From contig JAHPZI010000021.1 of assembly GCA_019058295.1 (NCBI GenBank), positions 64,001 to 128,000 on the forward strand: DNA of 64,000 nt, given 5' to 3'. The stretch comes from Promethearchaeota archaeon (lineage in GTDB: Archaea > Asgardarchaeota > Lokiarchaeia > Sigyniarchaeales > SOKP01). Below the pieces are notes generated by a model. That model searched no databases and was not told the DNA's origin. It saw only the letters and a list, made by a program, of their open reading frames with translations. The position numbers and the translations under genes are program-made. Below are positions 15,427-28,903 of this stretch, in pieces; the stretch's first letter is position 1; every line of letters begins with the position of its first letter.

Positions 15427-15589
15427 TTCAATCTAATCGAATTTTTTTTCTGAATTATATTAATTTCTTTTTCTTTTAAGAATTTATTACTATCCTAATA
15501 AAAATTCTTTCAGTGAAAAACCTATTCTTTATAAATAATAAATAAATAATAATATATAATATTCAAAATCAAGTAAACGGAAAAGAAAA

Positions 15590-15655
15590 ATGTTTAGAGA
15601 AAACTTAAAAGATCCTTCATCAGCTTGGTTTTGTTGTTGGCGTTGGCACGCATAG
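15590..15655 (+). CDS. trpL: putative Trp-rich leader peptide of trpDC-cupin-FBA (MFRENLKDPSSAWFCCWRWHA*)
   Basis: 21-codon ORF with 3 TGG codons in its last 9 codons, 162 nt upstream of trpD ATG; homologous to the leader before trpE. Confidence 0.8.
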   Translation: MFRENLKDPSSAWFCCWRWHA

Positions 15656-15777
15656 AGCGTGCGCAATGGCTTTAATTATTTTTAGAATTTCTTGCTTTTT
15701 TCTCTTTATAATTCTTAAAATTTTATGTTTGAATTGTAAAGAATAAAGGGGTTTTCTACAATATTAGAAATTCTAAA
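15624..15777 (+). promoter_or_regulatory. putative attenuator RNA (hairpin 1 over leader stop codon, hairpin 2 with U-rich arm)
   Basis: GCACGC(15646-51)/GCGTGC(15657-62) stem extended by CGTTG/CAATG; TTTAGAATTTCT(15681-92)/AGAAATTCTAAA(15766-77) outer stem and TCTTTATAATTC(15703-14)/GAATTGTAAAGA(15731-42) inner stem. Confidence 0.7.
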
Positions 15778-15817
15778 TCTTAAAATTTTAATAAAAAAAA
15801 TAAAAAAATTGAATAGG

Positions 15818-16873
15818 ATGACAGAAGAAAAAATAGTTGATGGTTTGAAAAAAATAACTCAAAAAGTAAGCTTAACAAGTGAAGAAGCAGAAAATATAAT
15901 GAGAGAGATAATGTCTGGTAAGGTACAAGACGCTCAATTAGGAGCATTTTTAACAGGTTTAGCTATGAAAGGAGAATCTGTTGATGAAATCACAGGATTT
16001 GCTCTAATAATGAGAGAATTTGCAAATCAAATTGAACCTAATGTAGAAGGAGATTTATTAGATACTTGTGGAACTGGAGGAGATAAAATTAAAACATTCA
16101 ACATTAGTACAATTTCGGCCTTAGTTGTTGCAGGAGCTGGAATACCTGTTGCAAAACACGGAAATCGAGCTGTAACTGGTACATGTGGTAGTGCAGACTT
16201 ATTGGAGGGGTTAGGGGTGAAAATTGATTTACCTCCTGAAGAAGTTAAAACTTGTATTGAAAAAGTAGGTATTGGATTTATGTTTGCGCCTTTATTTCAT
16301 CCGGCGATGAAATATGCTATGCCTACTAGAAGGGCTTTAAAATTAAGAACTGTGTTTAATATACTTGGACCATTAACAAATCCTGCAAATGCCAAGTGTC
16401 ATGTATTAGGTGTATTTCAAAAAGATTTAACTCCTGTTATGGCCAAGGTACTAAATGGCTTAGGTGCAAAACATGTTTTTACAGTTCATAACTCATATGG
16501 TATTGATGAAGTAGCACCAGTAGGAATAAATTATATCACAGAAGTGAATAATGGAACAATTGAGAGTTATGCAATTACCAATGAAGATTTTGGTATTCCT
16601 GATTGTTCGATAAATGATATATTAGCGGGAAATTTAGAAGAAAATCTTAAAATCGCAGTCAATATCTTAAAAAATAAAGTTATCGATTCAAAATACAACA
16701 CTGTATTAATGAACGCAGCATTAGCTCTTAAAAGTGTAAATAAAGCAAGCGATATCAAAGAAGGAATTGAAATCGCTAAAAATGCTATTGAATCTGGAAG
16801 TGTTTTTGAAAAACTTAAACAATTTATCGAAGTATCTGGCGGAAATCAAGACAAGTTAATGAGTTTATTATAA
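15818..16873 (+). CDS. trpD: anthranilate phosphoribosyltransferase
   Basis: DTCGTGGD, TFNIST, AKHGNRA, RTVFNILGPLTNP. Confidence 0.97.
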   Translation: MTEEKIVDGLKKITQKVSLTSEEAENIMREIMSGKVQDAQLGAFLTGLAMKGESVDEITGFALIMREFANQIEPNVEGDLLDTCGTGGDKIKTFNISTISALVVAGAGIPVAKHGNRAVTGTCGSADLLEGLGVKIDLPPEEVKTCIEKVGIGFMFAPLFHPAMKYAMPTRRALKLRTVFNILGPLTNPANAKCHVLGVFQKDLTPVMAKVLNGLGAKHVFTVHNSYGIDEVAPVGINYITEVNNGTIESYAITNEDFGIPDCSINDILAGNLEENLKIAVNILKNKVIDSKYNTVLMNAALALKSVNKASDIKEGIEIAKNAIESGSVFEKLKQFIEVSGGNQDKLMSLL

Positions 16874-16892
16874 AAGAAATAGCTTGAGATTA

Positions 16893-17702
16893 ATGAGTTC
16901 GAATAAAATAAAAGAAATAGTGGAGCAACGGAAAAAATCTATTCAAAGAGATGTAGATTTCATGAGAGATTTAGGAAGTGAGATTATCAAAAAGAATCGG
17001 GGACCTTTAAGTGAGATTATTAAATATAATCAAGGGATTTCGATTATCTCAGAGATTAAACCAGCCTCTCCTACTTTAGGCGATATTAAAAAGAATATTA
17101 ATGTTAAGGCTATTGCTACAGAAATGGAAAGTGCAGGAGTAATTGGTTTAAGCGTTTTAACTGAACCAAATTATTTTAATGGTTCCTATGAGAATCTCAA
17201 GTTAGCAGTAGAAAGCACGAAATTGCCGTGTTTAATGAAAGATTTTGTTGTTGATGAGATCCAATATAAAATTGCTGCTCAAATAGGAGCAACTAATATT
17301 TTGATTATAAATTCAATTAGCAATTTGGAGGATTCATACCGCAAAGCTTTAGAATATAGCTTAGAACCTCTGATAGAAATCCATGATAGTGAAGAACTCA
17401 ATGATATTCGTCATTTATATGATATAGGTTTAAAGCCTGCATTAATCGGAGTGAATAATCGCAATTTGAAAACATTAAAAATTGATTTAAACACATCAAA
17501 AGTAATCATTCCGAAGTTGAAGGAAGAATTTGGAGATAAAATTCAAATTATTAGTGAAAGTGGAATAAATACAGAAGATGATATTAAGTTTTTACTTCAG
17601 TATAAAGCTAATGCATTTTTAATTGGTTCTTCAATAATGAAATCGAGTAATATAAGAGAAAAAATATTGTCATTAAGAGGTTTAATTAATAAAATAGGTT
17701 GA
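16893..17702 (+). CDS. trpC: indole-3-glycerol phosphate synthase
   Basis: ISEIKPASPT, SVLTEPNYF, LMKDF, GVNNRNL, ISESGI, LIGSSIM. Confidence 0.95.
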   Translation: MSSNKIKEIVEQRKKSIQRDVDFMRDLGSEIIKKNRGPLSEIIKYNQGISIISEIKPASPTLGDIKKNINVKAIATEMESAGVIGLSVLTEPNYFNGSYENLKLAVESTKLPCLMKDFVVDEIQYKIAAQIGATNILIINSISNLEDSYRKALEYSLEPLIEIHDSEELNDIRHLYDIGLKPALIGVNNRNLKTLKIDLNTSKVIIPKLKEEFGDKIQIISESGINTEDDIKFLLQYKANAFLIGSSIMKSSNIREKILSLRGLINKIG

Positions 17703-17706
17703 GAAA

Positions 17707-18018
17707 ATGGATTATAGAATAGATTTTGAGAAAATTAAATGGAAAGAACCTGCGATTGGTGTAAGATTTAAGTCTTTCATATCCAATAATAAACAAGTAC
17801 GCTTGGTTGAATTTACTGATGAATTTATAGAACCTGATTGGTGTACGAAAGGACATATAGGTTTTGTATTAGAAGGAGAATTAGAAATTAATTTTGATGG
17901 AAAGTTAGTTAAATATGGAGCGGATGATGGTATATTCATTCCTAAAGGACCAGAACATAAACACATGGCAAAATGCATAACTAAAACAGTAAAATTAATC
18001 TTAATAGAAGAAATTTAA
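17707..18018 (+). CDS. cupin-fold protein (DHCW-motif-like) inside the trp operon
   Basis: DWCTKGHIGFVLEGELEI…HKH cupin pattern. Confidence 0.8.
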   Translation: MDYRIDFEKIKWKEPAIGVRFKSFISNNKQVRLVEFTDEFIEPDWCTKGHIGFVLEGELEINFDGKLVKYGADDGIFIPKGPEHKHMAKCITKTVKLILIEEI

Positions 18019-18031
18019 AGGTGAAATATAA

Positions 18032-18679
18032 ATGGAGTACATAAAAATATGTGGCTTAAAAGAAATCGAACACATTGAATTATGTAGGGATAATGATGCT
18101 AATGCCGTAGGTTTCATATACAATGTTCCTAGTTCTCCAAGAAATTTGGAAAAATCCAAATTAATGAATCTTTTAAAAGACATTCCTAAGAAATTATTAA
18201 CTGTAATTGTATTTAAACCCCAAAATATCTTAGAATTAGAAAGAGTAATAAATGAAATAGATGTTGATTTATATCAGATTCATAGTAATTTTGAAAATCT
18301 AGAAATGGAAGAAATTCAACCTGAATTGAAAAAAAAGATTATTTTAGCATTACAAGTAAATTCTTCCAATAAAGATGATGTAATTTATAAAATTAATAAA
18401 TATTATGACCAATTTTTTGGTTTTTTAATTGATAATAGTGAAGGTCATGGTACAGAATTTAATTTCAATATCGTTGCAGATATTATAAATAATACCAAAG
18501 GAGCGAGTATAATAGTTGCTGGAGGTATTGATAGTAACAATATTGAAAAGATAATTAGAGATTTAAACCCTTATGGAATTGATATAAGTAGTTCATTAGA
18601 ATCCGAAAAGGGGGTTAAAGATCCATTAAGAATTGAAAATTTTTTAAAAAAAGTAAATGAAATTAAGAAAACATTATGA
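18032..18679 (+). CDS. trpF: phosphoribosylanthranilate isomerase
   Basis: IKICG, SPR, QIH, VAGGI, GIDISSSLESEKGVKD. Confidence 0.93.
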   Translation: MEYIKICGLKEIEHIELCRDNDANAVGFIYNVPSSPRNLEKSKLMNLLKDIPKKLLTVIVFKPQNILELERVINEIDVDLYQIHSNFENLEMEEIQPELKKKIILALQVNSSNKDDVIYKINKYYDQFFGFLIDNSEGHGTEFNFNIVADIINNTKGASIIVAGGIDSNNIEKIIRDLNPYGIDISSSLESEKGVKDPLRIENFLKKVNEIKKTL

Positions 18680-18688
18680 GGGATAAAA

Positions 18689-19891
18689 ATGAAATATAGT
18701 GGGAGATATCCTAATAAGTGCGGTAAATTTGGGGATTTTGGAGGTATTTTTGCTCCAGAGGTTCTCATGCCAGCACTTAATGAGCTTACTGAAGCTTTTG
18801 AAAAATATAGAAATGATGAAAGTTTCAAAAAAGAGTTTTATCAGATACTCGAATCATATGGGGGTCGTCCAACACCTTTATTTTATGCTAAAAGATTAAG
18901 TGAAGATGTAGGATGCAAAGTATATTTGAAAAGAGAAGATTTACTTCATGGTGGAGCTCACAAATTAAACAATGTAATAGGACAGGCATTATTAGCCAAG
19001 AAAATGGGAAAAACAAAGCTTGTAGCAGAAACAGGTGCAGGGCAACATGGATTTGCTACTGCTATTGCTGGAGCTTATTTCGGCATGGAAACAAAGGTAT
19101 TCATGGGAGAAGTTGATATCGCCAGACAAGCATACAATGTATATCGCATGCAATTACTTGGAGCTGAAGTAATACCTGTAAAAATTGGTTCGAAAACATT
19201 AAAGGATGCGATTAATGATGGACTTAGATATTGGATCACCAATGTGAGAGATACTCACTACTTAATGGGAAGCGTTGTCGGTCCACATCCATATCCGCTA
19301 TTAGTGAGAGAATTCCAAAGAGTTATTGGAATTGAAACTAAAAAGCAAATAATGGAGTTAGAGGGTAGATTACCTAATGCAATCATCGCTTGTATTGGTG
19401 GTGGAAGTAATGCTATAGGAATAATGTATGATTTCATTGAAGATGAGAATGTCCAGTTAATTGGAGTTGAGGCTGCTGGAGAAGGATTAGAAACAGGAAA
19501 ACATTCAATAGCATTAGGGTTAGGTCGAAGAGGAGTATTACATGGATCCTTAATGTATCTATTACAAAATGAATATGGTAATATACTAAAGACACATTCT
19601 ATAAGTGCAGGACTAGATTATCCTGGTGTTGGCCCCGAACATTGTTTTTTAAAAGAATTAACAAGGCTTAGAGTAGAAACTGCAACAGATAATGAGACTT
19701 TAGCGTCTTTTCAAAAATTATCCGTTATAGAAGGAATTATTCCTGCATTGGAGTCATCACATGCACTTGCGTGCCTGGAAAAAATTAAGGGTGAGTTTAA
19801 TAAAGATGACATTGTAATAATTAATTTATCTGGTTCAGGTTCTAAAGATCTAAATATAATCAAACAGCGTATGGAGTTTAAAGTAAAATGA
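18689..19891 (+). CDS. trpB: tryptophan synthase beta chain (TrpB1 type)
   Basis: [16 protein letters not shown] (PLP Lys), [30 protein letters not shown]. Confidence 0.98.
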
Positions 19892-20718
19892 ATCATACAA
19901 ATAGAATCTTGGACCTTTTTAATGATAAGAATGCATTAGAGGAAAAATATTTTATGCCCTTTCTAGTTTGTGGAGATCCTTCGATTGAACAGTTTATCTC
20001 AATGATTGAAAAAATCGATCCTTATATAGATATCCTTGAGTTAGGCATTCCTTTTAGCGACCCAATTGCTGATGGTCCTACCGTTCAAGAGGCAAATATG
20101 AGAGCATTCGAGGCAGGCATCAATACAAAAGTCGCGCTCGATACAATTAAGAAAATCAGGACATTTTTCCAAAAACCGATTGTTATTTTAACTTATTACA
20201 ACATTTTAATTCAAGGATCAGAGACAATAGAAAGTTCATTGGATAATACATTGAGAAGATTCAAGGAAAGTGGGATAGACGGAATTGTTATCGCCGATCT
20301 TCCAATTGAAGAAGCAGGTTTAGCGTTAAAATATTGTAAAAAACATAATATATCCCTTATATTTTTAATTGCTCCTACAACTACAGATGATAGATTAGAA
20401 AAAATCTTGAAAGAAGCAAGAGGATTTGTCTATTTAATATCTATATTGGGTGTTACCGGTGCTCGGGAAAAAATCGCTCAAATCACGAAAGAAACGATTA
20501 AAAGAGTAAAAAGTAAAATCAAAACCAAAATTCCAATTTTCTTGGGATTCGGTATATCTACACCGGAACATGCATCCACTCTAGTTGAATTAGGAGCCGA
20601 TGGAATTATCATTGGCTCGGCAATGATAGATGTTATTAAGAGAAATCTAAGCGATTTCACCAAAATGGAAAAAGAACTTGTGGAATTTGTATCAAGTATA
20701 AATAATGCGATTAAGTGA
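19888..20718 (+). CDS. trpA: tryptophan synthase alpha chain
   Basis: [33 protein letters not shown]; ATGA overlap with trpB. Confidence 0.97.
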
Positions 20719-20728
20719 TTAAATTAAA

Positions 20729-21913
20729 ATGTCAAATAATATACTAAAAGTCGGTGTGATTGGGTGTGGAATTATTGCAAAAATAGGACACTTACCATGG
20801 TATAATCATTCAAAAGAGGCAAATATAGTCGCTTTAGCAGATCCCGATGAGAAGAAGCTTAAAAAAGCAGGAAAATTATATAATGTAGAGAAATTATATA
20901 CTGATCCAAATGATCTTATTGATGATCCTGAAATTGATGCTGTTAGTATTTGTTCACCTCATTGGGCTCATGCTCAACAAACAGTAAGAGCTGCTGATAA
21001 CGGAAAACATATTATTTGTGAGAAGCCTATTGGGACCGACTTAAATCAGATTGATGAGATGATTAAGGCTGTTGAGAAAAATCAGGTAATTTTCCAAACT
21101 GCTACACAAAAAAGATTTAGTCCAGGGTTCCAAATGATAAAAGAAGATCTATTAGAAGGAAAACTCGGTGATGTATTCCATGCGTCTATTTATTGGTATC
21201 ATTTCATACCTGACTTAGATATTCCATGGATAAGAAAATCTCTGGATTTTTTAAAGAAATTGGGTATTGATATAGAAAAAAATATGGGTGCATGGAGATT
21301 AACAGATGAAAGAGCAGGAGGGGGCGACTTAATGGATCATGTTCCTCACTATTATGATTTATTTAGATTTTGGTTTGGTGATGTCGCTACAGTAAGCGCT
21401 CAAGTGAGAAGAGTCTATAAAAGCAGAGCTCATGAGGATCATGGCGCAATGCTTTTTTCATTTAAAAATTGTGAAACAATTGCTGTTTTTGAAAGATCTC
21501 AGAATATAACTGGACGAGTAAAAGGTGAAGAATTAGGACGAATTCACGGCACGAAGGGTTCATATTACTTTGATGTGCCACATGAATATAACTTAGAACC
21601 AATGGAAATTAAAAAATTCATGTTCTCTTTAAAGAATTATATCGTGAATCGAAAGAAAAAGATAAAAATCAAGTATCCAAAAGATAAATGGAACCTTAGT
21701 TATGCTAGAGAAATTCGGAGTTTTATAAACCAATGTCTGGGAAAATCAAATGAGGATGTTGGATTTCCAGAAGAATGGATCCCAACAATCTATGATGGTA
21801 GGGCTGCTTTAGAAGGAGTCCTAGCGACTTATGAATCGTCTCGAACAAATCAAACTATCCATTTACCATTAAAAAGTTATTCTCCAATCAATTGGAAAAA
21901 TACAGTGGAGTGA
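20729..21913 (+). CDS. Gfo/Idh/MocA family oxidoreductase
   Basis: GVIGCG, HIICEKP, GGGDLMDHVPHYYD. Confidence 0.9.
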   Translation: MSNNILKVGVIGCGIIAKIGHLPWYNHSKEANIVALADPDEKKLKKAGKLYNVEKLYTDPNDLIDDPEIDAVSICSPHWAHAQQTVRAADNGKHIICEKPIGTDLNQIDEMIKAVEKNQVIFQTATQKRFSPGFQMIKEDLLEGKLGDVFHASIYWYHFIPDLDIPWIRKSLDFLKKLGIDIEKNMGAWRLTDERAGGGDLMDHVPHYYDLFRFWFGDVATVSAQVRRVYKSRAHEDHGAMLFSFKNCETIAVFERSQNITGRVKGEELGRIHGTKGSYYFDVPHEYNLEPMEIKKFMFSLKNYIVNRKKKIKIKYPKDKWNLSYAREIRSFINQCLGKSNEDVGFPEEWIPTIYDGRAALEGVLATYESSRTNQTIHLPLKSYSPINWKNTVE

Positions 21914-21925
21914 TTTATTAAAAAT

Positions 21926-22438
21926 ATGATTGATTATGGTCATACTTGCTTATTGATCTTTGCTCAAGGTACTTGGAAAGAAAACTATAGAATGAGATTT
22001 TTAAAGAAAATTAAAGCTAAGTTTATTACTTCAATGAAAATAGATGACATTGATCTCTGGGGCGAGAATGAGCAGATTCCTTTATTTGATCCTAATCATC
22101 CAGAAGCAAATGATAATCCCTGTGAATTATGTGATCCTTTATCTGAGATTTTTTTAAAAAAGAAAGGACAGAACGATGGTTTTATTCTTTTCTCACATAA
22201 CGTTCTTGGATGGGATGGAATGAAAGATTTTTTTCTATATATTTTAGGAGAATCAAATGTGAAAAAGATATATTACTTAGAATTGGATGGATTTTCTTAC
22301 TTAGTTAGTACAAAGGATAGGATTCCCGAAATCCTAAATGCTTTAAAAGAGAAGAAAGTCAATAGATCTACTTTCTTTGATCTATTTGAAAAAGAAAAGA
22401 TAGAATTTAGTATAATATATGAAATTTTAAAATATTAA
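21926..22438 (+). CDS. hypothetical protein
   Basis: ORF in operon-like spacing; no recognised motif. Confidence 0.65.
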   Translation: MIDYGHTCLLIFAQGTWKENYRMRFLKKIKAKFITSMKIDDIDLWGENEQIPLFDPNHPEANDNPCELCDPLSEIFLKKKGQNDGFILFSHNVLGWDGMKDFFLYILGESNVKKIYYLELDGFSYLVSTKDRIPEILNALKEKKVNRSTFFDLFEKEKIEFSIIYEILKY

Positions 22439-22478
22439 GTTTATATTTGCGAAATATAAGAAAAGAAGAGGAATAGAA

Positions 22479-23378
22479 TTAGAAATCATTAATTTTAATG
22501 TTGTTTTCCCTAAATAAGGATTTAATTTTTCTTTTTGTATCAATTGTAAGCCATTCAGAATAGTTGTATTCAGTTTCCAATCCAATTTTTTCTGATTTTG
22601 AAAGCCAAAGCGGATTGTAAGGTAATAACCAGACCTTATCTATGTTTAAAGATTTGAAATATTGTATCCAACTCCTTAGATTTTCTTCCTTTAAGGTAAT
22701 TTCTGGAATCAGAGGTATTCTCGGTAAGAGTTCTATACTTTCATTTTTTATTAAGTATTCAAAATTGCTTAAAATTAATTGATTAGGGACTTTACAATAT
22801 TTTTCATGTATATTTGAATCATATATTTTTAAATCGAAGTAAATGAGATCTAAAAAGGGTAACACTAATTCTATAAATTTCTCATTATTATAATAACCAC
22901 TTGTTTCAATGCATATATGAATTCCATACGTTTTCAGTTCTTTCAACAAAGCATTTAAATATTCCATATGAAACGTAGGCTCTCCCCCAGATAATGTAAC
23001 TCCTCCCCCTGTATTATCATAAAATACTTTATCCCTCAATATTAATTCGGCTAATTCTTTAATATCATATTCCTTACCTACATATTTATAAGCTTGATTA
23101 GGACAAACTTCTATACATTTACCACATAAATCGCAAATATCTCTATCAATTCTATATTGATTAGAGAAGTTGATTGCTCCTTTTTTACAATGACTCATGC
23201 AAATCGTGCATTCACTACAATCTTCTTTAGTGAATGATAGCTCTTGATCAGCTTTCTTAGTTTCAGGATTTTGGCACCATACGCATGAAAGAGGACAACC
23301 CTTAAAAAAAATTAAGGTTCTAATCCCAGGGCCATCATCTAATGCATTTCTTCTAATATCTACGATTAAGGTTTTCAT
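22479..23378 (-). CDS. glycyl-radical enzyme activating protein (radical SAM, with 2x[4Fe-4S] ferredoxin insert)
   Basis: DGPGIRT, GCPLSCVWCQNPE, two CxxCxxCxxxC motifs, GGVTLSGGEP. Confidence 0.95.
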   Translation of the reverse strand: MKTLIVDIRRNALDDGPGIRTLIFFKGCPLSCVWCQNPETKKADQELSFTKEDCSECTICMSHCKKGAINFSNQYRIDRDICDLCGKCIEVCPNQAYKYVGKEYDIKELAELILRDKVFYDNTGGGVTLSGGEPTFHMEYLNALLKELKTYGIHICIETSGYYNNEKFIELVLPFLDLIYFDLKIYDSNIHEKYCKVPNQLILSNFEYLIKNESIELLPRIPLIPEITLKEENLRSWIQYFKSLNIDKVWLLPYNPLWLSKSEKIGLETEYNYSEWLTIDTKRKIKSLFRENNIKINDF

Positions 23379-23421
23379 TTTAAATAAAAATTAATTGAGA
23401 AATCATCGCTTTTAAAGAAAA

Positions 23422-26388
23422 TTATCTTGCGTTGAATTCAGTTCTTTCTATAAGTTCTATTTGCATATTTTTATTTATTTTTGTGAAGTAGGCATTATAT
23501 CCAGATATCCTTACTAATAACCAATGGTAATTTTCTGGATGGACCATTGCGTCTCTTAACATATCAGAGGTTACTATGTTAAATTGCCATTGCATTCCTC
23601 CTAAATCGATAAAACTCTGCACGTATCCTGTAAAAAGATCTAATGTTTCTCCATGAGAGTCTCCTGGATGGGGCACCAATTTAACGTTATATGAAGCATT
23701 ATTTGGCATCTTTAAATGGTCTAAACTTGCGATTGTACGTATATTCTGAAGCAAAAGATCAGAGCTTCCTGGAGCAGGAGTTAAACCGGGTGTTAATGCC
23801 TTTCCTTTCTTTCTGCCAGAGGGCAGAGCGCCTGTAAGCATTCCATAACCCACATGATATGATATAGACCAGTATCCAACAAGATAAGTACCCCCTCTGT
23901 AATTCTTTTCGGATTTGTATAAATCATAACAATAATCTAATAAATCATCAGCAATATCTTTAGTTCCAGGTTCATCGGATCCAAATTTAGGAACTTTTTG
24001 GATTTTATTAAGTAATTCTGCAGAACCATTCTCAAAATTATCTTTTAAAGCATATAATAAGGTTGAATAATTTATTTCCTTTTTATTATATATCAGATCT
24101 TTTATTACTAATAGACTATCAACAGCATCCGTAAGAGACACTAATGCTACTCCAGACGTATTATAAACAGCACCACCTTGTACGAGATCTTTCCCCTTTT
24201 CTAAAGGACCGTCATAAAACGCAGATAAAAATGGAGTAGGTTTGATATATTGATGACTTTCACCTAAATAGTTATTAATTTCAATTGATTGATCAATTAA
24301 ATATTTCAATTGTGTTTTATAGGCACTATAGAAATCCTCAAATTTTGGAAAATTGTCTAGATCAGGGAAACCTGTTTCGGGTCCCACTTGTACTCCAATT
24401 AAAGGGTGAATGCCATTATTTAATGCCATTTCAAGCGGAGCAACCATATTTAGAAGCATTGCATTAGTATGACCGAAATGCTTTCCTACAACAGTTGGTT
24501 CTACACAACCAGTAGCAGCCCAATCTCTCGCATCTTCTAAAGCAAATCCTTCATTAACAAGAGCTTCAATCATTGCTTTATCATTATGTATTGAAGGGCT
24601 GGAAACCATATTTATATTAACCTCTGTTAGGCGTCTTAGATATTCTTTAGAATTTATACCAGAATAATATCTTGCATTCATATTGGGATCCTGAAAACAC
24701 AACATTTCATTTGTTTTTAAAATAATGAATGTCATATCATTAACCGCATTATTACCATTACGATCTACACCACCAATTGTAACCGTATCATCTGAGGAAC
24801 TACCACCAAATAATTTATTTCCTATAGAAGGAATCAATGGATCATGGTCATTGATTCTTAAGATTAAGTTTCCTACAAGCTCAATGGATTTATTGATTAT
24901 TTTCTCTTTTTCCTCATCGTTCGATGTTTTTTCCATTTCAGATAAGAAATATGGCTGCAGCATTTGATCTAATCTTCCTATACTCATTGCAGAATTAGGA
25001 TTCTCGCAATGAATGCAAGTAAAGCACGTCCAAATTGACTGAACTGCTTCTTGTAAGGTTTCTGCTGGTTTAGCAGGTACTTTAGCACATATTCTTGAAA
25101 TTTCTTTCAATTCATCTATTCGTAGGGCTTGCTCAGGATCATTTGAATCTAAGCTTTCAGCAATTCGCAAGGCTTCCTCGCTCAAATGGTTAGCATAAGC
25201 TAAAGCCCCATTAATAGCAGTTTGAATTGCTTTGTAGAAATTTTTCTTTTCATCTGAAGTGGCCTCCGATTCCATTTTTACTGCTTTGTTTCTTATGCTT
25301 TCTAACCCTTCATTTAGTATCTTCGGAAAACCAGGAACTGTATGTGAAATGGCATTATTCTTCATCATAAAGTAGAAGACCCATCTTTCCTCGATCCATA
25401 ACGATTTAGGGTTATGCTTGTTAACGCGACAATGCTCTCGAACATTTCTTTCCATCCAGTAAGGAAACACTTCTTGGCTTAATATATCTGCATCTTTAGG
25501 GGCAATATCGTTAGGATTAAGCTCGCGAACACCTAATGATTGTAATTCCGGCCAAGCAGCAGTACCAATCAATTCAGGATAAATTGGAATCCCTACTTCT
25601 TTTGATGTAGTGGAACCTGCGATAAGGAATTGACCATGAATTATAGGTTTTTTATTTGACATTATGTAATTTACTGCCCCCGCGTTTCGTAGTTCTGGAT
25701 CAAATGGATTCCCAGATTTATCAGTTTCATAACCATTTTCTAAATGATACTCTGTCAACAATTTTGCTCGTTCAACGCAAATTGCAGGTTTTAATGCCCT
25801 TCTTCGACTTTTAAGATACTTTAAACGTGGAAAGTCATTAATAGAATAATTTGCTAAATAAGGATCCTTTAAATAATGCACGTTATCAATTTTCCGATTT
25901 AGTGCGTCACTTTTAAGCTTTCTATTTTCTTCACCTTTTTCAATTTCTTCAATCGAATGTATTAAACGGTTTTCGGGACCTTTATAACCCTTAATTTTAG
26001 CACCCGTGGCGAGTGTAGTAAGATATGAGAATTTAGTAAGATATGCCATATTACCTTCAAAAGACATTGAATTATCTAAAAGATATTCGAGTGTTTCATC
26101 TGCAGATTTATCCCAAGTTTCTGCTAGAGTCGCCTTATCTTTATAGATTATTTTTATGTTTGGATCATCAACTATCCCTTCTTCGGCAGTTATTTTTCCA
26201 TTATCAAAGATTAATTTTAAATTAAATCCACCATCACGAGTTGTAAATTGATATTTGGCATTAAAAATGAATCCTGTCTTCTCGTTATAAATTTCCTTTC
26301 GCAATCTTCTGCGTGTAAAAACTATATCTAAAAGTCCAAGAGTTTCTTTAAATTTCTCTAATGATTCATTAATTTCAGCTTCATTCAT
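23422..26388 (-). CDS. glycyl radical enzyme (PFL-family lyase/eliminase type) with N-terminal SCP2-like extension
   Basis: SIGRLDQ, Cys loop GCVEP, Gly loop LLVRISGYNAYF; ~120-aa N-terminal extension resembling SCP2. Confidence 0.9.
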   Translation of the reverse strand: MNEAEINESLEKFKETLGLLDIVFTRRRLRKEIYNEKTGFIFNAKYQFTTRDGGFNLKLIFDNGKITAEEGIVDDPNIKIIYKDKATLAETWDKSADETLEYLLDNSMSFEGNMAYLTKFSYLTTLATGAKIKGYKGPENRLIHSIEEIEKGEENRKLKSDALNRKIDNVHYLKDPYLANYSINDFPRLKYLKSRRRALKPAICVERAKLLTEYHLENGYETDKSGNPFDPELRNAGAVNYIMSNKKPIIHGQFLIAGSTTSKEVGIPIYPELIGTAAWPELQSLGVRELNPNDIAPKDADILSQEVFPYWMERNVREHCRVNKHNPKSLWIEERWVFYFMMKNNAISHTVPGFPKILNEGLESIRNKAVKMESEATSDEKKNFYKAIQTAINGALAYANHLSEEALRIAESLDSNDPEQALRIDELKEISRICAKVPAKPAETLQEAVQSIWTCFTCIHCENPNSAMSIGRLDQMLQPYFLSEMEKTSNDEEKEKIINKSIELVGNLILRINDHDPLIPSIGNKLFGGSSSDDTVTIGGVDRNGNNAVNDMTFIILKTNEMLCFQDPNMNARYYSGINSKEYLRRLTEVNINMVSSPSIHNDKAMIEALVNEGFALEDARDWAATGCVEPTVVGKHFGHTNAMLLNMVAPLEMALNNGIHPLIGVQVGPETGFPDLDNFPKFEDFYSAYKTQLKYLIDQSIEINNYLGESHQYIKPTPFLSAFYDGPLEKGKDLVQGGAVYNTSGVALVSLTDAVDSLLVIKDLIYNKKEINYSTLLYALKDNFENGSAELLNKIQKVPKFGSDEPGTKDIADDLLDYCYDLYKSEKNYRGGTYLVGYWSISYHVGYGMLTGALPSGRKKGKALTPGLTPAPGSSDLLLQNIRTIASLDHLKMPNNASYNVKLVPHPGDSHGETLDLFTGYVQSFIDLGGMQWQFNIVTSDMLRDAMVHPENYHWLLVRISGYNAYFTKINKNMQIELIERTEFNAR

Positions 26389-26592
26389 TTTAATATTCCC
26401 CTAGTCTTAGAAATCTCGAATTTTTTTATTATTAATTGTTTTTAGTTATCCTAATTTTTAAATATCATCATTCTATTTAACAAGCTTCGTTTTAAATATT
26501 AGAATAAAAGATTAATAATTGGATAAAAAAAATATAAATACAACCTAAACCTTATTCTATTAAAAAACCTCAAAACAAGTTGTTTACTAAGT

Positions 26593-26664
26593 ATGAATAA
26601 TATGAAAAATAGTGTTGATTTTCAAGAACCAACTTGGTTTTGGGACTGGCGTTGGCACGCATAG
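26593..26664 (+). CDS. trpL: putative Trp-rich leader peptide of trpEG (MNNMKNSVDFQEPTWFWDWRWHA*)
   Basis: 23-codon ORF (20 from ATG 26602) with 4 TGG codons in its last 9 codons, 146 nt upstream of trpE. Confidence 0.82.
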   Translation: MNNMKNSVDFQEPTWFWDWRWHA

Positions 26665-26736
26665 AACGTGCGCAATGGCTTAACTTATTTTAGGATTTCT
26701 TTTCTTATAACGCATATAAAGAATAAGGGATTCTAA
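26633..26736 (+). promoter_or_regulatory. putative attenuator RNA, homologous to 15624-15777
   Basis: 44/49 nt identical to 15624-15672; GCACG(26655-59)/CGTGC(26667-71) stem plus CGTTG/CAATG; second ~20-bp hairpin 26690-26736. Confidence 0.7.
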
Positions 26737-26810
26737 TTCAAATTTTAATTATTAAGTTTTTTATTCAATAAAATAAATGATAAAAGAAATAGAAAAATAG
26801 TGGAATTGTA

Positions 26811-28304
26811 ATGGAATTTGATATTCATATTGAAAAAATTGGAGAATTGGATGATATATTTGGGTTTTATAAATATTTAGTGAAACGTTATGATTTGAAA
26901 AAACATGCTTTATTAGAGTCCGCTTCAGAAAATACAAAAGAAACCTTATATAGTTTTATTGCAATGCAACCGGATTTCATGCTTGAAATTAATGAGGATA
27001 AGTTTAAAATATATGATATCTCTACTGCCCGAGGGGAAAGAATTAAAGAATACGTAGAATCTAGAGATCCTGCCGTGGAAAGACCGCATAATCCCTTGCC
27101 ATTTAAAGATAATGTCGAATATAATATGGTTGCGCTCGATACTTTGAGCCATCTCACACCTTATTCTAATCTTCCTTTCACAGAATTATTCCCAAGGAAC
27201 ATCTTTTACGGCGGGATGCTTGGGTATATAGGGTATGACGTAGTTGCTCCTTATGTGGGTTATAAATCTACAAGCGAATTTCCAGATATTTTAATGGGGC
27301 TCTATACAAAAGCATTGGTCTATTCACATAAATCAAATGCATTATTCATGATTGATAATAGCATTAATGATTATTCAAAAGATAAAGATATCCGATATCA
27401 ACTCAGCTTATTTAATAGAAATCATAATTCAGATGAAGTTGGAGAAATATCCTTGGATATTGAAGAGGTGGATGAATCTCATTTCAGATCCAACACAAGC
27501 AAGAGTGCTCATGAAAGAATGGTAGAAAAGACAAAAGAATACATTTATGATGGAGATATTATACAAGCAGTTATCTCCCGAAGGCTCTATACAGAGACAA
27601 AAATAGATCCTATGGCAATTTATGAGGTTCTAAGAGTTCTTAATCCATCGCAATATATGTACAATATAAATTTTGGTAATATTCGCATCATTGGGAGTAG
27701 TCCAGAAGCACTTATCTCAAAAAATAAAGATATTCTTAATACTGTGCCAATTGCCGGAACCATAAGAAGAGGCAAAACTCCAGAAGAAGATACAAAATTA
27801 GAAAAGGAATTGTTAGAGGACCCAAAGGAAAAGGCTGAACATATCATGCTTGTGGATTTAGCACGCAACGACCTCGCAAAAGTTTCATATCCAGGTTCTG
27901 TTGATACATTTGAACTCATGACAGTTCAAAAATATCAAAAAGTTCAACATATTGTTAGTAAAGTGAGAAGTAAGACACCTCTTGATGGGTATCAAGTTCT
28001 AAAAAGCGTATTCCCAGCAGGTACTCTTTCAGGAGCACCTAAAAAGCGTGCTATGGAAATAATACAAGAATTAGAAACAGAATCGAGAGGACCTTATGGG
28101 GGTGGTGTCGGCTATTTCTCATTTAATGGAGATATGGCGTTTGCCATTGCGATTAGGACACTTTTTGGGATGAATGGTACATATTTTGCTCAAGCAGGAG
28201 GCGGGATTGTCGCAGATAGCCAACCACATGAAGAGTACACAGAGACCTACAATAAGTTATATAGTGTTATAAAATCGATAAAAATTGCGGAGGCAAGAAA
28301 ATAA
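26811..28304 (+). CDS. trpE: anthranilate synthase component I
   Basis: LLES and NPSQYMY Trp-feedback motifs, PIAGT (TrpE-type, not PabB PIKGT), EHIMLVDLARND, FPAGTLSGAPK. Confidence 0.95.
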   Translation: MEFDIHIEKIGELDDIFGFYKYLVKRYDLKKHALLESASENTKETLYSFIAMQPDFMLEINEDKFKIYDISTARGERIKEYVESRDPAVERPHNPLPFKDNVEYNMVALDTLSHLTPYSNLPFTELFPRNIFYGGMLGYIGYDVVAPYVGYKSTSEFPDILMGLYTKALVYSHKSNALFMIDNSINDYSKDKDIRYQLSLFNRNHNSDEVGEISLDIEEVDESHFRSNTSKSAHERMVEKTKEYIYDGDIIQAVISRRLYTETKIDPMAIYEVLRVLNPSQYMYNINFGNIRIIGSSPEALISKNKDILNTVPIAGTIRRGKTPEEDTKLEKELLEDPKEKAEHIMLVDLARNDLAKVSYPGSVDTFELMTVQKYQKVQHIVSKVRSKTPLDGYQVLKSVFPAGTLSGAPKKRAMEIIQELETESRGPYGGGVGYFSFNGDMAFAIAIRTLFGMNGTYFAQAGGGIVADSQPHEEYTETYNKLYSVIKSIKIAEARK

Positions 28305-28903
28305 TGAAAATCCTATTTATTAACAATTATGATAGTTTTGTTTATAATTTGGTCAATTATATCTGTCAATTAGAACCCAACGGCCAAATTATTATCGAGG
28401 ATAACCATATTGCGGTGGACAAGATTAAAGAAATGAATGTTGATAAAATAATTATTTCACCAGGACCTGGACATCCTAAGTATGACACGGGCACAGTAAT
28501 TCCCATCATTAAAGAATTTTATTCCAAAATACCAATATTAGGAATTTGCCTAGGGCATCAAGCTATTGTCGAAGCTTTCGGCGAAGATGAGAATATGGAA
28601 TATGTGGGCAGAGCTAAAGTAGGGCCCATGCACGGCAAGGAATCTAAAGTCTTTCACGACCAAGAAACAATTCTTAAGGACATCCCTAATCCACTCCAAG
28701 TAATTAGATATCACTCACTTTCCGCAAAATCCGATATTTTACCCCAAAACCTTAAAATTAGTGCGACTGCGGATGATGGCACAATCATGGGGGTTAGGCA
28801 TAAACAATATCCTATAGAAGGGGTCCAATTCCATCCCGAGTCGATAAAAATGAAACCTTATGGAATACAATTATTAAAAAATTTCTTAGAATTAAAAATA
28901 TAA
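28304..28903 (+). CDS. trpG: anthranilate synthase component II (class I glutamine amidotransferase)
   Basis: [36 protein letters not shown]; TAATG overlap with trpE. Confidence 0.95.
   Translation: MKILFINNYDSFVYNLVNYICQLEPNGQIIIEDNHIAVDKIKEMNVDKIIISPGPGHPKYDTGTVIPIIKEFYSKIPILGICLGHQAIVEAFGEDENMEYVGRAKVGPMHGKESKVFHDQETILKDIPNPLQVIRYHSLSAKSDILPQNLKISATADDGTIMGVRHKQYPIEGVQFHPESIKMKPYGIQLLKNFLELKI

Follow-up and report, generated by a model that had tools for sequence, protein, structure and literature searches.

A Trp-codon leader upstream of trpD

Can an archaeon gauge its tryptophan supply with a ribosome that translates a short leader? The question is raised by a 64,000-nucleotide (nt) stretch of a Promethearchaeota genome (contig JAHPZI010000021.1, positions 64,001 to 128,000 of the forward strand; hereafter the window), in which a small open reading frame (ORF) rich in Trp codons lies upstream of trpD. 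Leader-peptide attenuation is a textbook bacterial mechanism that needs ribosomes translating nascent RNA, and in archaeal Trp control TrpY of Methanothermobacter is a DNA-binding repressor acting at the promoter. A preliminary description of the window, made without database searches, had proposed a ribosome-mediated attenuator in front of trpD. On the comparative evidence presented here, the element is very probably a ribosome-based tryptophan sensor.

The source genome (G000; 3.2 Mb, 31% GC, 79% complete) is that of a Lokiarchaeia-type Asgard archaeon of the Promethearchaeota. Its nearest trpD loci, at 95% identity, belong to metagenome-assembled genomes named Promethearchaeota archaeon (AMARA_1S, TEKIR_6S), a phylum that a taxonomy look-up places in the Archaea, and the genome encodes a full-length orthologue of aCPSF1/FttA (TIGR03675, 870 bits against a cut-off of 580). 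Both results uphold the Asgard-like assignment that had been proposed from the letters of the window.

The leader ORF is an upstream ORF (uORF) of 21 codons on the plus strand (15590-15655; ATG at 15590, TAG at 15653-15655), with the peptide MFRENLKDPSSAWFCCWRWHA. As stated in the preliminary description, three Trp codons, at 15626, 15638 and 15644, fall within its last nine residues; both the sequence and the ORF list bear this out. Such an arrangement is rare: a genome-wide scan returned 17 of 36,941 short ATG-started ORFs with at least three Trp in the last nine residues, and only two of the 17 end in WRWHA, namely this ORF and a second trp leader described below. Other W-rich short ORFs of the genome (C10, C6, C16, C20, C22 and others) were rejected as candidates, having no hairpin and no Trp gene downstream.

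A TATA box precedes the leader ORF (Table 1), and we infer that the transcript starts at about 15562-15565, roughly 25-30 nt upstream of the ORF. As part of the explanation favoured below, the stretch 15530-15817 is probably the promoter and 5' leader of a trpD-trpC-(cupin)-trpF-trpB-trpA operon.

The leader is duplicated where trpEG is separated from the operon

The preliminary description had considered seven Trp enzymes together and counted a single Trp in about 2,200 of their residues. Our count for TrpD, TrpC, TrpF, TrpB, TrpA, TrpE and TrpG agrees, at 1 Trp in 2210 amino acids, against a proteome frequency of 1.14%. The grouping itself needs amending: five of the enzymes, together with a cupin, lie behind the trpD leader, whereas trpE and trpG stand about 6 kb further on, beyond unrelated genes, and have a leader copy of their own. 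The cupin encoded within the operon holds 2 Trp, while the neighbouring enzymes hold almost none.

The second leader ORF, MNNMKNSVDFQEPTWFWDWRWHA, ends 146 nt upstream of trpE. In both leaders the TATAAATA box precedes the ATG by exactly 60 nt, and the 5' untranslated region (5'-UTR) contains the motif CAAAA(U)CAAGU. They also share the block that runs from the Trp codons through a first hairpin (hairpin A) to UUUUAGRAUUUCUU, and the base of a second hairpin (hairpin B); they diverge in their N-terminal codons and inside hairpin B. Most relatives have trpE directly after trpA, with no separate leader, and the extra copy is confined to G000 and its two closest relatives, G005 and G007. A duplicated leader beside the separated trpEG genes is what would be predicted for a cis-acting Trp control element, and the copy, at 26533-26810, would put trpEG under the same Trp control as the main operon.

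The leader is conserved across relatives and gene orders

If the element is an attenuator, Trp uORFs should recur upstream of the trp genes of relatives, and they do so across the genus, family and order and ahead of several different first genes. Of 17 orthologous trpD loci sampled within the genus, family and order, 16 have a short Trp-rich ATG-started ORF ending in W-x-W-x-W-R-x-stop, located 147-478 nt upstream of the gene. Where upstream sequence was available, all 19 named Promethearchaeota loci have a Trp uORF, against 0-3 of 28 non-Asgard trpD loci, those of Bathyarchaeia, Omnitrophota, Marinimicrobia and other groups being essentially devoid of it. A metagenome scan contributed about 30 further loci. 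In total, some 60 distinct leaders in relatives keep a short ATG-started Trp uORF behind a TATA box, and in most of them, whether of the trpE, trpA or trpD type, TATAAATA precedes the uORF ATG by 50-63 nt. In the relatives L015 and L276 the box is only about 30 nt from the ATG, which would make the uORF leaderless or shift its start.

The leaders fall into two clades that differ in how the peptide ends, clade I (which includes G000) in ..W-F-W-x-W-R-W-H-A-stop and clade II in ..R-W-Q-W-P-W-R-A-stop. The N-termini differ in sequence, and their lengths differ by whole codons. What is kept are the Trp codons, the Arg that follows and the position of the stop, which always comes one to three codons after the last Trp, within or beside the hairpin loop.

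The leader also stays with Trp genes when gene order changes. The same leader family occurs before trpE in G294, G320 and G326 (pattern search of 71 family genomes); before trpA in G004 and G009, where no trpD was found; and before trpB2 (TIGR01415/NF009057 above cut-off) in G008, G013, G021, G318 and G015. No trpB2 was found in G000. In some relatives the leader precedes an ORF of about 85 amino acids, here called orfX, which is followed by trpD. Whichever gene comes first, a spacer of about 140-200 nt separates it from the uORF stop.

These features bear on whether the ORF has any regulatory role, as it might instead encode a small Trp-rich protein with its own function or be a chance ORF in a conserved promoter region. 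Leader peptides can act in trans, as peTrpL of Sinorhizobium reportedly does (PMC7298713). However, a protein-coding or chance ORF sits poorly with a linkage that is exclusive to Trp genes in five gene contexts, with the duplication of the leader when the operon was split, with a variable N-terminus beside which only the Trp codons, hairpin and stop are conserved, and with the genome-wide rarity of such ORFs. We regard a non-regulatory ORF as extremely improbable.

Beyond this family, W-rich uORFs were seen in two further Asgard families (f8, f14), and a ..LWRSWWWI uORF was confirmed in a family other than that of G000. Since the operons of most other Asgard families do not begin with trpD, that gene alone is no guide to how the leader is distributed across the phylum. 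In the phylum-level sample, 39 of 301 Asgard genomes have a trpD match at E<=1e-50. Many family members without a trpD match still carry the Trp leader motif, in the checked cases before trpB2 or trpA, which suggests that Trp pathways of a partial or salvage type are widespread and share this leader control.

A leader of the same layout precedes an isoleucine-pathway gene

The genome has another leader of this kind outside the window, with Ile in place of Trp codons. The Ile-rich uORF MNKIIPIRVIGIIIIGII lies on the minus strand of contig C28 (plus-strand coordinates 23096-23152; locus L282) behind a TATAAATA box, is followed by a perfect 14-15-bp hairpin and U5, and ends 103 nt upstream of the citramalate synthase gene cimA (TIGR00977, 688 bits). 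In relatives, covering nearly all family members with upstream sequence, Ile uORFs (..IIP....IIIGII(II)-stop) and a hairpin with covarying arms occur 91-118 nt upstream of the cimA orthologue. A composition-based scan for leaders of other amino acids gave none that was convincing, and it overlooked the Ile leader, since Ile abounds in AT-rich ORFs. Judged by its sequences, the lineage uses cognate-codon leaders for at least two pathways, and the conserved Ile leader raises our confidence that the Trp leader is read by a ribosome.

The Trp codons lie within conserved RNA structure

The 3' end of the trpD leader ORF folds into hairpin A, in which 15641-15651 pairs with 15657-15668 through an inner GCACGC/GCGUGC and an outer CGUUG/CAAUG helix with G15663 bulged. 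The 5-nt loop, AUAGA (15652-15656), contains the stop codon. The preliminary description had placed the TAG in the loop of just such a GC-rich hairpin and had followed it with a long second hairpin with a U-rich 5' arm. Both are present, the second as hairpin B at 15682-15776, with T5 (15679-15683) and T6 (15696-15701) borne by its 5' arm.

The fold of the whole leader is more stable than expected from shuffled sequences (z of -2.9 to -3.0; 1-2 of 200 shuffles equally good). Windows around hairpin A, from -24 to +30 of the stop, average -13.8 kcal/mol in 47 unique leaders and -6.1 kcal/mol in 4614 control windows at stop codons of the same loci, and just 3.8% of the controls are as stable as the leader median, although the leaders are kin, so that counts and P-values overstate their independence.

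A cross-clade MAFFT alignment of the hairpin A region was not structure-consistent, and RNAalifold found almost nothing on it. We therefore tabulated the arms sequence by sequence, which is not a formal covariation statistic. Tabulated in this way, the arms differ between lineages with pairing kept: GCACGC/GCGUGC, GCACG/CGUGC, GCACGU/ACGUGC and GGCGUU/AACGCU, and furthermore GGCGCG/CGCGCU, GGCGUUG/UAACGCC and CCUGGCGUC/GGCGCCAGG. Relative to the trpD leaders, a C-G pair is replaced by U-A in the trpE leader of G007, a double change that costs an Ala-to-Val replacement in the leader peptide; the trpE leader of G000 carries the intermediate C·A at the same site. For the GC-rich family f4, the 4 genomes available were too few for covariation.

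Codon choice points in the same direction. Across leaders, the Arg codons after the first Trp are CGN in 51 of 51 cases; AGA and AGG make up 65% of the Arg codons of the genome, and AGA prevails among the N-terminal Arg codons of these uORFs. Because Arg is always CGN there, the 3' end of the uORF appears to be shaped by RNA pairing as well as by decoding. This matters for the possibility of a TnaC-like arrest peptide, in which the nascent W-x-W-x-W-R-x would sense free tryptophan and stall at the stop codon. TnaC itself depends on Trp, Asp and Pro at fixed spacing for its sensing of free Trp at the stop codon. The strong conservation of the C-terminal motif, including the Arg and the stop position, would suit an arrest peptide, as would the structured context of the stop codon. 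Yet no TnaC-type motif is present in the leader peptides, in which the positions between the Trp are free to vary (F, C, V, A, Q, P, S, H), and the constant CGN fits RNA pairing rather than a constraint on the peptide. Moreover, stalling at high Trp would have to repress a biosynthetic operon, which needs an extra inversion step of which we saw no sign, and the Ile leader has the same layout. An arrest peptide is thus very improbable.

A further helix, P1, joins the 5'-UTR to the segment that holds the first Trp codon. It appears when the fold begins at the likely transcript start, is found in the fold of the trpE leader as well, and is the RNAalifold consensus of 15 clade-I leaders, with 10 pairs, one compensatory GC-to-AU change and several GU changes. 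The partner of the 5'-UTR in clade II is the segment directly after hairpin A, with its U4-5 tract; this helix of about 15 bp closes the whole uORF in a loop. The base of hairpin B is kept in trpD, trpE and trpA leaders despite interiors of very different length; in these leaders it shows wobble-type changes only and no double compensatory ones.

Some 90-140 nt past the uORF stop, clade-II leaders (for example L036:2400-2470, L140 and L005) have an additional, strongly conserved element, UUUUCUAAAUGUGCNUUA ... AUUGAAUUCCAAU ... ACACAU. It folds into a long hairpin, and its 3' strand, ACACAU, has an alternative partner in the AUGUGU that follows, an arrangement that looks like a possible switch. 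The UUUUCUAAAUGUGCNUUA element was not found in G000-type leaders.

The conserved hairpins might also be read by a protein. Under this explanation the UGG repeats or hairpins would be the site of a Trp-activated RNA-binding (TRAP-like) protein or another trans factor, and the reading frame would be incidental or secondary. The UGG triplets do occur at exact 3-nt spacing, with up to five in succession, the arms of hairpin B and the extra clade-II hairpin are more conserved in sequence than pairing requires, and small ORFs (the ~85-amino-acid orfX, the cupin) travel with the operon. However, deeply diverged leaders keep an in-frame ATG, a frame that stays open through AT-rich sequence, indels of whole codons and a stop one to three codons after the last UGG. 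There are 2-5 UGG and not 9-11 (G/U)AG repeats, no TRAP homologue (PF02081) was found in the genome, which is 79% complete, and a Trp-specific protein site does not explain a cimA leader of the same layout with Ile codons. A protein-binding site of this kind is therefore highly unlikely.

How the sensor might act on gene expression

A conserved uORF with its Trp codons, the placement of those codons in a hairpin and a TATA box are the hallmarks of a ribosome-read Trp sensor, and we consider it very likely that the leader is translated and senses Trp. To this extent the earlier attenuator proposal stood; its second part, in which altered hairpins or exposure of the U-tract would control read-through into trpD, is conjectural.

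In the model that we favour, a ribosome translating the leader would report the supply of charged tRNA-Trp. When charged tRNA-Trp is low, the ribosome would stall on the UGG codons and keep P1 and hairpin A unfolded. When it is ample, the ribosome would reach the stop codon in the loop and leave, and the leader would fold into a compact structure of P1, A and B that abuts the U-rich stretch (T5, T6). The folded, ribosome-free leader would most likely favour premature termination or cleavage at the U-tracts, intrinsically and/or via aCPSF1/FttA, and a stalled ribosome would permit read-through. This amounts to a two-state ‘ribosome occlusion’ design that dispenses with a separate antiterminator, and we favour it because no alternative pairing was found. 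A Trp-sensing leader with an occlusion-type output is, taken as a whole, a probable explanation of the locus.

Termination in archaea provides a plausible context for this model. In Methanococcus maripaludis, aCPSF1 cooperates with U4 tracts, which are read by its KH domains, and a Lokiarchaeal aCPSF1 orthologue can replace the native protein (review PMC13675443). Between +10 and +70 after the leader stop, U4+ tracts average 1.76 compared with 1.02 in control windows, and 63% of leaders have at least two T4+ tracts compared with 28% of controls. Most clade-I relatives also have a T6-T10 run 15-30 nt after hairpin B, a T6+ run being present in 29% of control upstream regions. Given a real sensor, output by premature termination is conceivable, though it falls somewhat short of being probable. 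We propose still more tentatively that the Trp and Ile leaders, at least, belong to an Asgard family of ribosome-mediated attenuators in which the ribosome would gate folding of the 5' leader beside U-tracts and, by that route, premature termination (oligo-U with aCPSF1/FttA-Spt4/5).

Two candidates were tried and rejected. One is a classical four-segment switch, for which no conserved antiterminator partner was found; ribosome masks, moreover, leave hairpin B unaffected. The other is the use of T-runs as evidence of a terminator, as the background of T5+ and T6+ runs is too high and only a modest U4 enrichment after hairpin A is left.

Several observations weigh against the occlusion model. 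No conserved alternative partner was found for the 3' arm of hairpin A (RNAduplex, 30 leaders, z ~0), and constrained folds in which a 30-nt ribosome mask covers the stop or else the first or last Trp codon alter only P1 and A and always leave hairpin B as it was. T-runs are common genome-wide, with T5+ within 80 nt after 55% of ORF stops, and the trpD leader of G000 is without the T6 run after hairpin B that its relatives have. The GC-rich relatives L015 and L017 (60-65% GC) keep the uORF and the hairpin and have no T4+ run. In L018 (48% GC) the leader ends in a hairpin that sequesters the Shine-Dalgarno sequence of trpD. Archaeal RNA polymerase is not known to require a hairpin in order to terminate. 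With the 5' arms fixed by UGG codons, double compensatory changes are few; the leaders, as stated, are kin; and an internal promoter is possible in the AT-rich spacer before trpD.

Under the main rival to the occlusion model, the same ribosome-read Trp sensor would have a post-transcriptional output, its fold controlling access to the start of the first gene or decay of the mRNA in place of transcription termination. The Shine-Dalgarno hairpin points to a translational output at least in L018, where the GGAGGG of trpD is locked in a CCCUCC/GGAGGG hairpin and another GGAGGG is found upstream, within a series of mutually exclusive helices beginning at the uORF stop. In minimum-free-energy folds of clade II, the U-rich segment after hairpin A pairs with the A-rich start region of the next gene. 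The absence of T-runs from GC-rich relatives is in accordance with such an output, and the constant stop-to-gene spacer of about 140-200 nt would suit a structured expression platform extending just up to the start codon. In G000, however, neither trpD nor trpE has a clear Shine-Dalgarno sequence or a sequestering helix, and pairings of A-rich with U-rich segments carry little information at 31% GC and are the same across the masked-ribosome states. If the sensor is real, output through translation or mRNA stability is possible but doubtful; as a full account of the locus, sensor and post-transcriptional output together are rather unlikely.

Comparison with known leaders

Three of the features that mark cognate-codon leaders as a class are found together here. 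UGG makes up three of the last nine codons of the leader ORF, and four UGG occur in the trpE copy; the Trp codons lie within RNA structure (P1 and the 5' arm of hairpin A, with the stop in the loop); and linkage to the cognate pathway holds across gene orders (trpD, trpE, trpA, trpB2 and orfX-trpD).

The closest parallel is trpL of E. coli and Salmonella (RF00513), likewise a short ORF with clustered Trp codons before Trp-biosynthesis genes. Its 1:2 structure resembles hairpin A in having the Trp codons in the 5' arm and the leader stop in the loop region, and in both systems a U-rich sequence follows and the regulated enzymes are poor in Trp. Nevertheless, RF00513 gave no match at the gathering threshold across the whole window and none up to E=10 in the two leader regions, and nothing relevant was returned by Rfam at gathering or permissive E-values. 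Unlike trpL, the element described here has an Asgard host and a TATA-box promoter, and we detected no 2:3 antiterminator or classical 3:4 terminator; hairpin B of G000 has no U-run directly after it. The 5'-UTR forms an extra helix, in clade I with the Trp codons and in clade II with the U-tract after the hairpin; the spacer is long (140-200 nt), and termination would be of the archaeal kind, with oligo-U and aCPSF1/FttA and without Rho.

In the pyrBI and pyrE attenuators of E. coli, the ribosome occludes the terminator hairpin and no antiterminator is involved. As in the model favoured here, the position of the ribosome alone decides whether a hairpin beside a U-tract forms. The pyr leaders differ in that they sense UTP through pausing of RNA polymerase and in that their hairpin is a canonical bacterial terminator, whereas the hairpin here stands 10-25 nt from the best U-runs and would have a putative role in archaeal termination. 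The Bacillus TRAP (MtrB) leader has 9-11 (G/U)AG repeats with 2-3-nt spacers, in contrast to the 3-5 UGG triplets present here.

Cognate-codon uORFs before amino-acid operons, as seen here, are also known from the Trp leaders of Actinobacteria (PMC1262725) and the leaderless poly-Cys uORFs of mycobacteria (bioRxiv 10.1101/834739). Those leaders were found by comparative genomics, and some begin where the transcript does or close to that point, which may be compared with L015 and L276; they differ in being all bacterial and in having unrelated RNA structures. TrpY serves the same pathway in an archaeon, but the conserved element here is a translated-type ORF with RNA structure in the leader.

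In full-text literature searches we found no published description of an archaeal leader peptide for Trp or any other amino acid, and the word attenuation is absent from a 2026 review of termination signals across the domains of life (PMC13675443). The principle, amino-acid sensing by a leader peptide, is known; new are the domain, the unrelated RNA and, probably, the output machinery. Trp and Ile leaders in Lokiarchaeia would show that archaea evolved or retained the logic of attenuation with a different RNA and probably also with a different termination apparatus. If the model holds, this would be attenuation without the bacterial-type pair of antiterminator and terminator, and it would provide direct evidence that the closest prokaryotic relatives of eukaryotes control genes through functional transcription-translation coupling. 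The leader would then offer a compact natural test system for such coupling and for aCPSF1/FttA-dependent termination. Annotation of Asgard genomes would gain as well, since uncalled small ORFs of this type would mark Trp-regulated genes such as trpB2 and the ~85-amino-acid orfX.

Features of the window and further observations

The coordinates of the two leaders and of the Trp genes are collected in Table 1.

Table 1. Leader elements and Trp-pathway genes in the window.
Feature	Position	Strand	Basis or remark
Leader-promoter TATA box TATAAATA	15530..15537	+	60 nt upstream of the uORF ATG; same octamer in most leaders
P1 5' strand CAAAAUCAAGU, in the 5'-UTR	15564..15574	+	Pairs with 15623-15633 in minimum-free-energy and centroid folds
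trpL-like leader ORF MFRENLKDPSSAWFCCWRWHA*	15590..15655	+	Sequence reading and ORF list; in-frame Trp codons kept in relatives
P1 3' strand GCUUGGUUUUG, holding the first Trp codon	15623..15633	+	Folds; block invariant in clade I
Hairpin A	15641..15668	+	Pairing of the final Trp, Arg, Trp, His and Ala codons with the letters directly 3' of the stop
U-rich stretch after hairpin A (T5 + T6), candidate termination/aCPSF1-recognition tracts	15669..15707	+	Sequence reading
Hairpin B, base helix UUAGAAUUUCU/AGAAAUUCUAA, interior variable	15682..15776	+	Folds; same base in trpE and trpA leaders
trpD	15818-16873	+	Pfam; ATG 15818 preferred over TTG 15809 by alignment with the N-termini of relatives
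trpC	16884-17702	+	Pfam
Cupin, 103 amino acids (Cupin_2/EutQ-like)	17707-18018	+	Pfam; between trpC and trpF
trpF	18032-18679	+	Pfam
trpB	18689-19891	+	Pfam; TrpB confirmed by NCBIfam
trpA	19888-20718	+	Pfam
Second-leader TATA box	26533..26540	+	60 nt upstream of the ATG of the second leader
Second leader ORF MNNMKNSVDFQEPTWFWDWRWHA*, 4 Trp codons	26593..26664	+	Genome-wide scan; aligned to the first leader
Second leader: hairpin A 26650-26677, U-rich linker, short hairpin B 26691-26737	26650..26737	+	Fold
trpE	26811-28304	+	Pfam
trpG	28304-28903	+	Pfam

The interval between trpA and trpE (20729-26388) holds a Gfo/Idh/MocA oxidoreductase, encoded by the ORF directly after trpA, an ORF of 170 amino acids and two minus-strand genes, one an ORF of 299 amino acids and the other a glycyl-radical (PFL-like) enzyme of 988 amino acids. 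The interruption is found in G000 and its two nearest relatives, and in other relatives trpE comes directly after trpA.

The orfX of relatives (~75-90 amino acids), which does not occur in the window, lies between the leader and trpD at L005:1236-1490 and in L006, L007, L010, L034, L038 and L159. It has the motif ..LINK.K..IFGPEKSKTAKFI..NY.DVY.., matches no Pfam family, and starts about 170 nt after the uORF stop, where trpD starts in other genomes. It is presumably co-regulated by Trp.

Finally, at two trpD loci of Marinimicrobia/Neomarinimicrobiota (L065, L066), a 5-codon ORF, MVWIW, ends 34 nt upstream of trpD and may be a minimal bacterial Trp leader.

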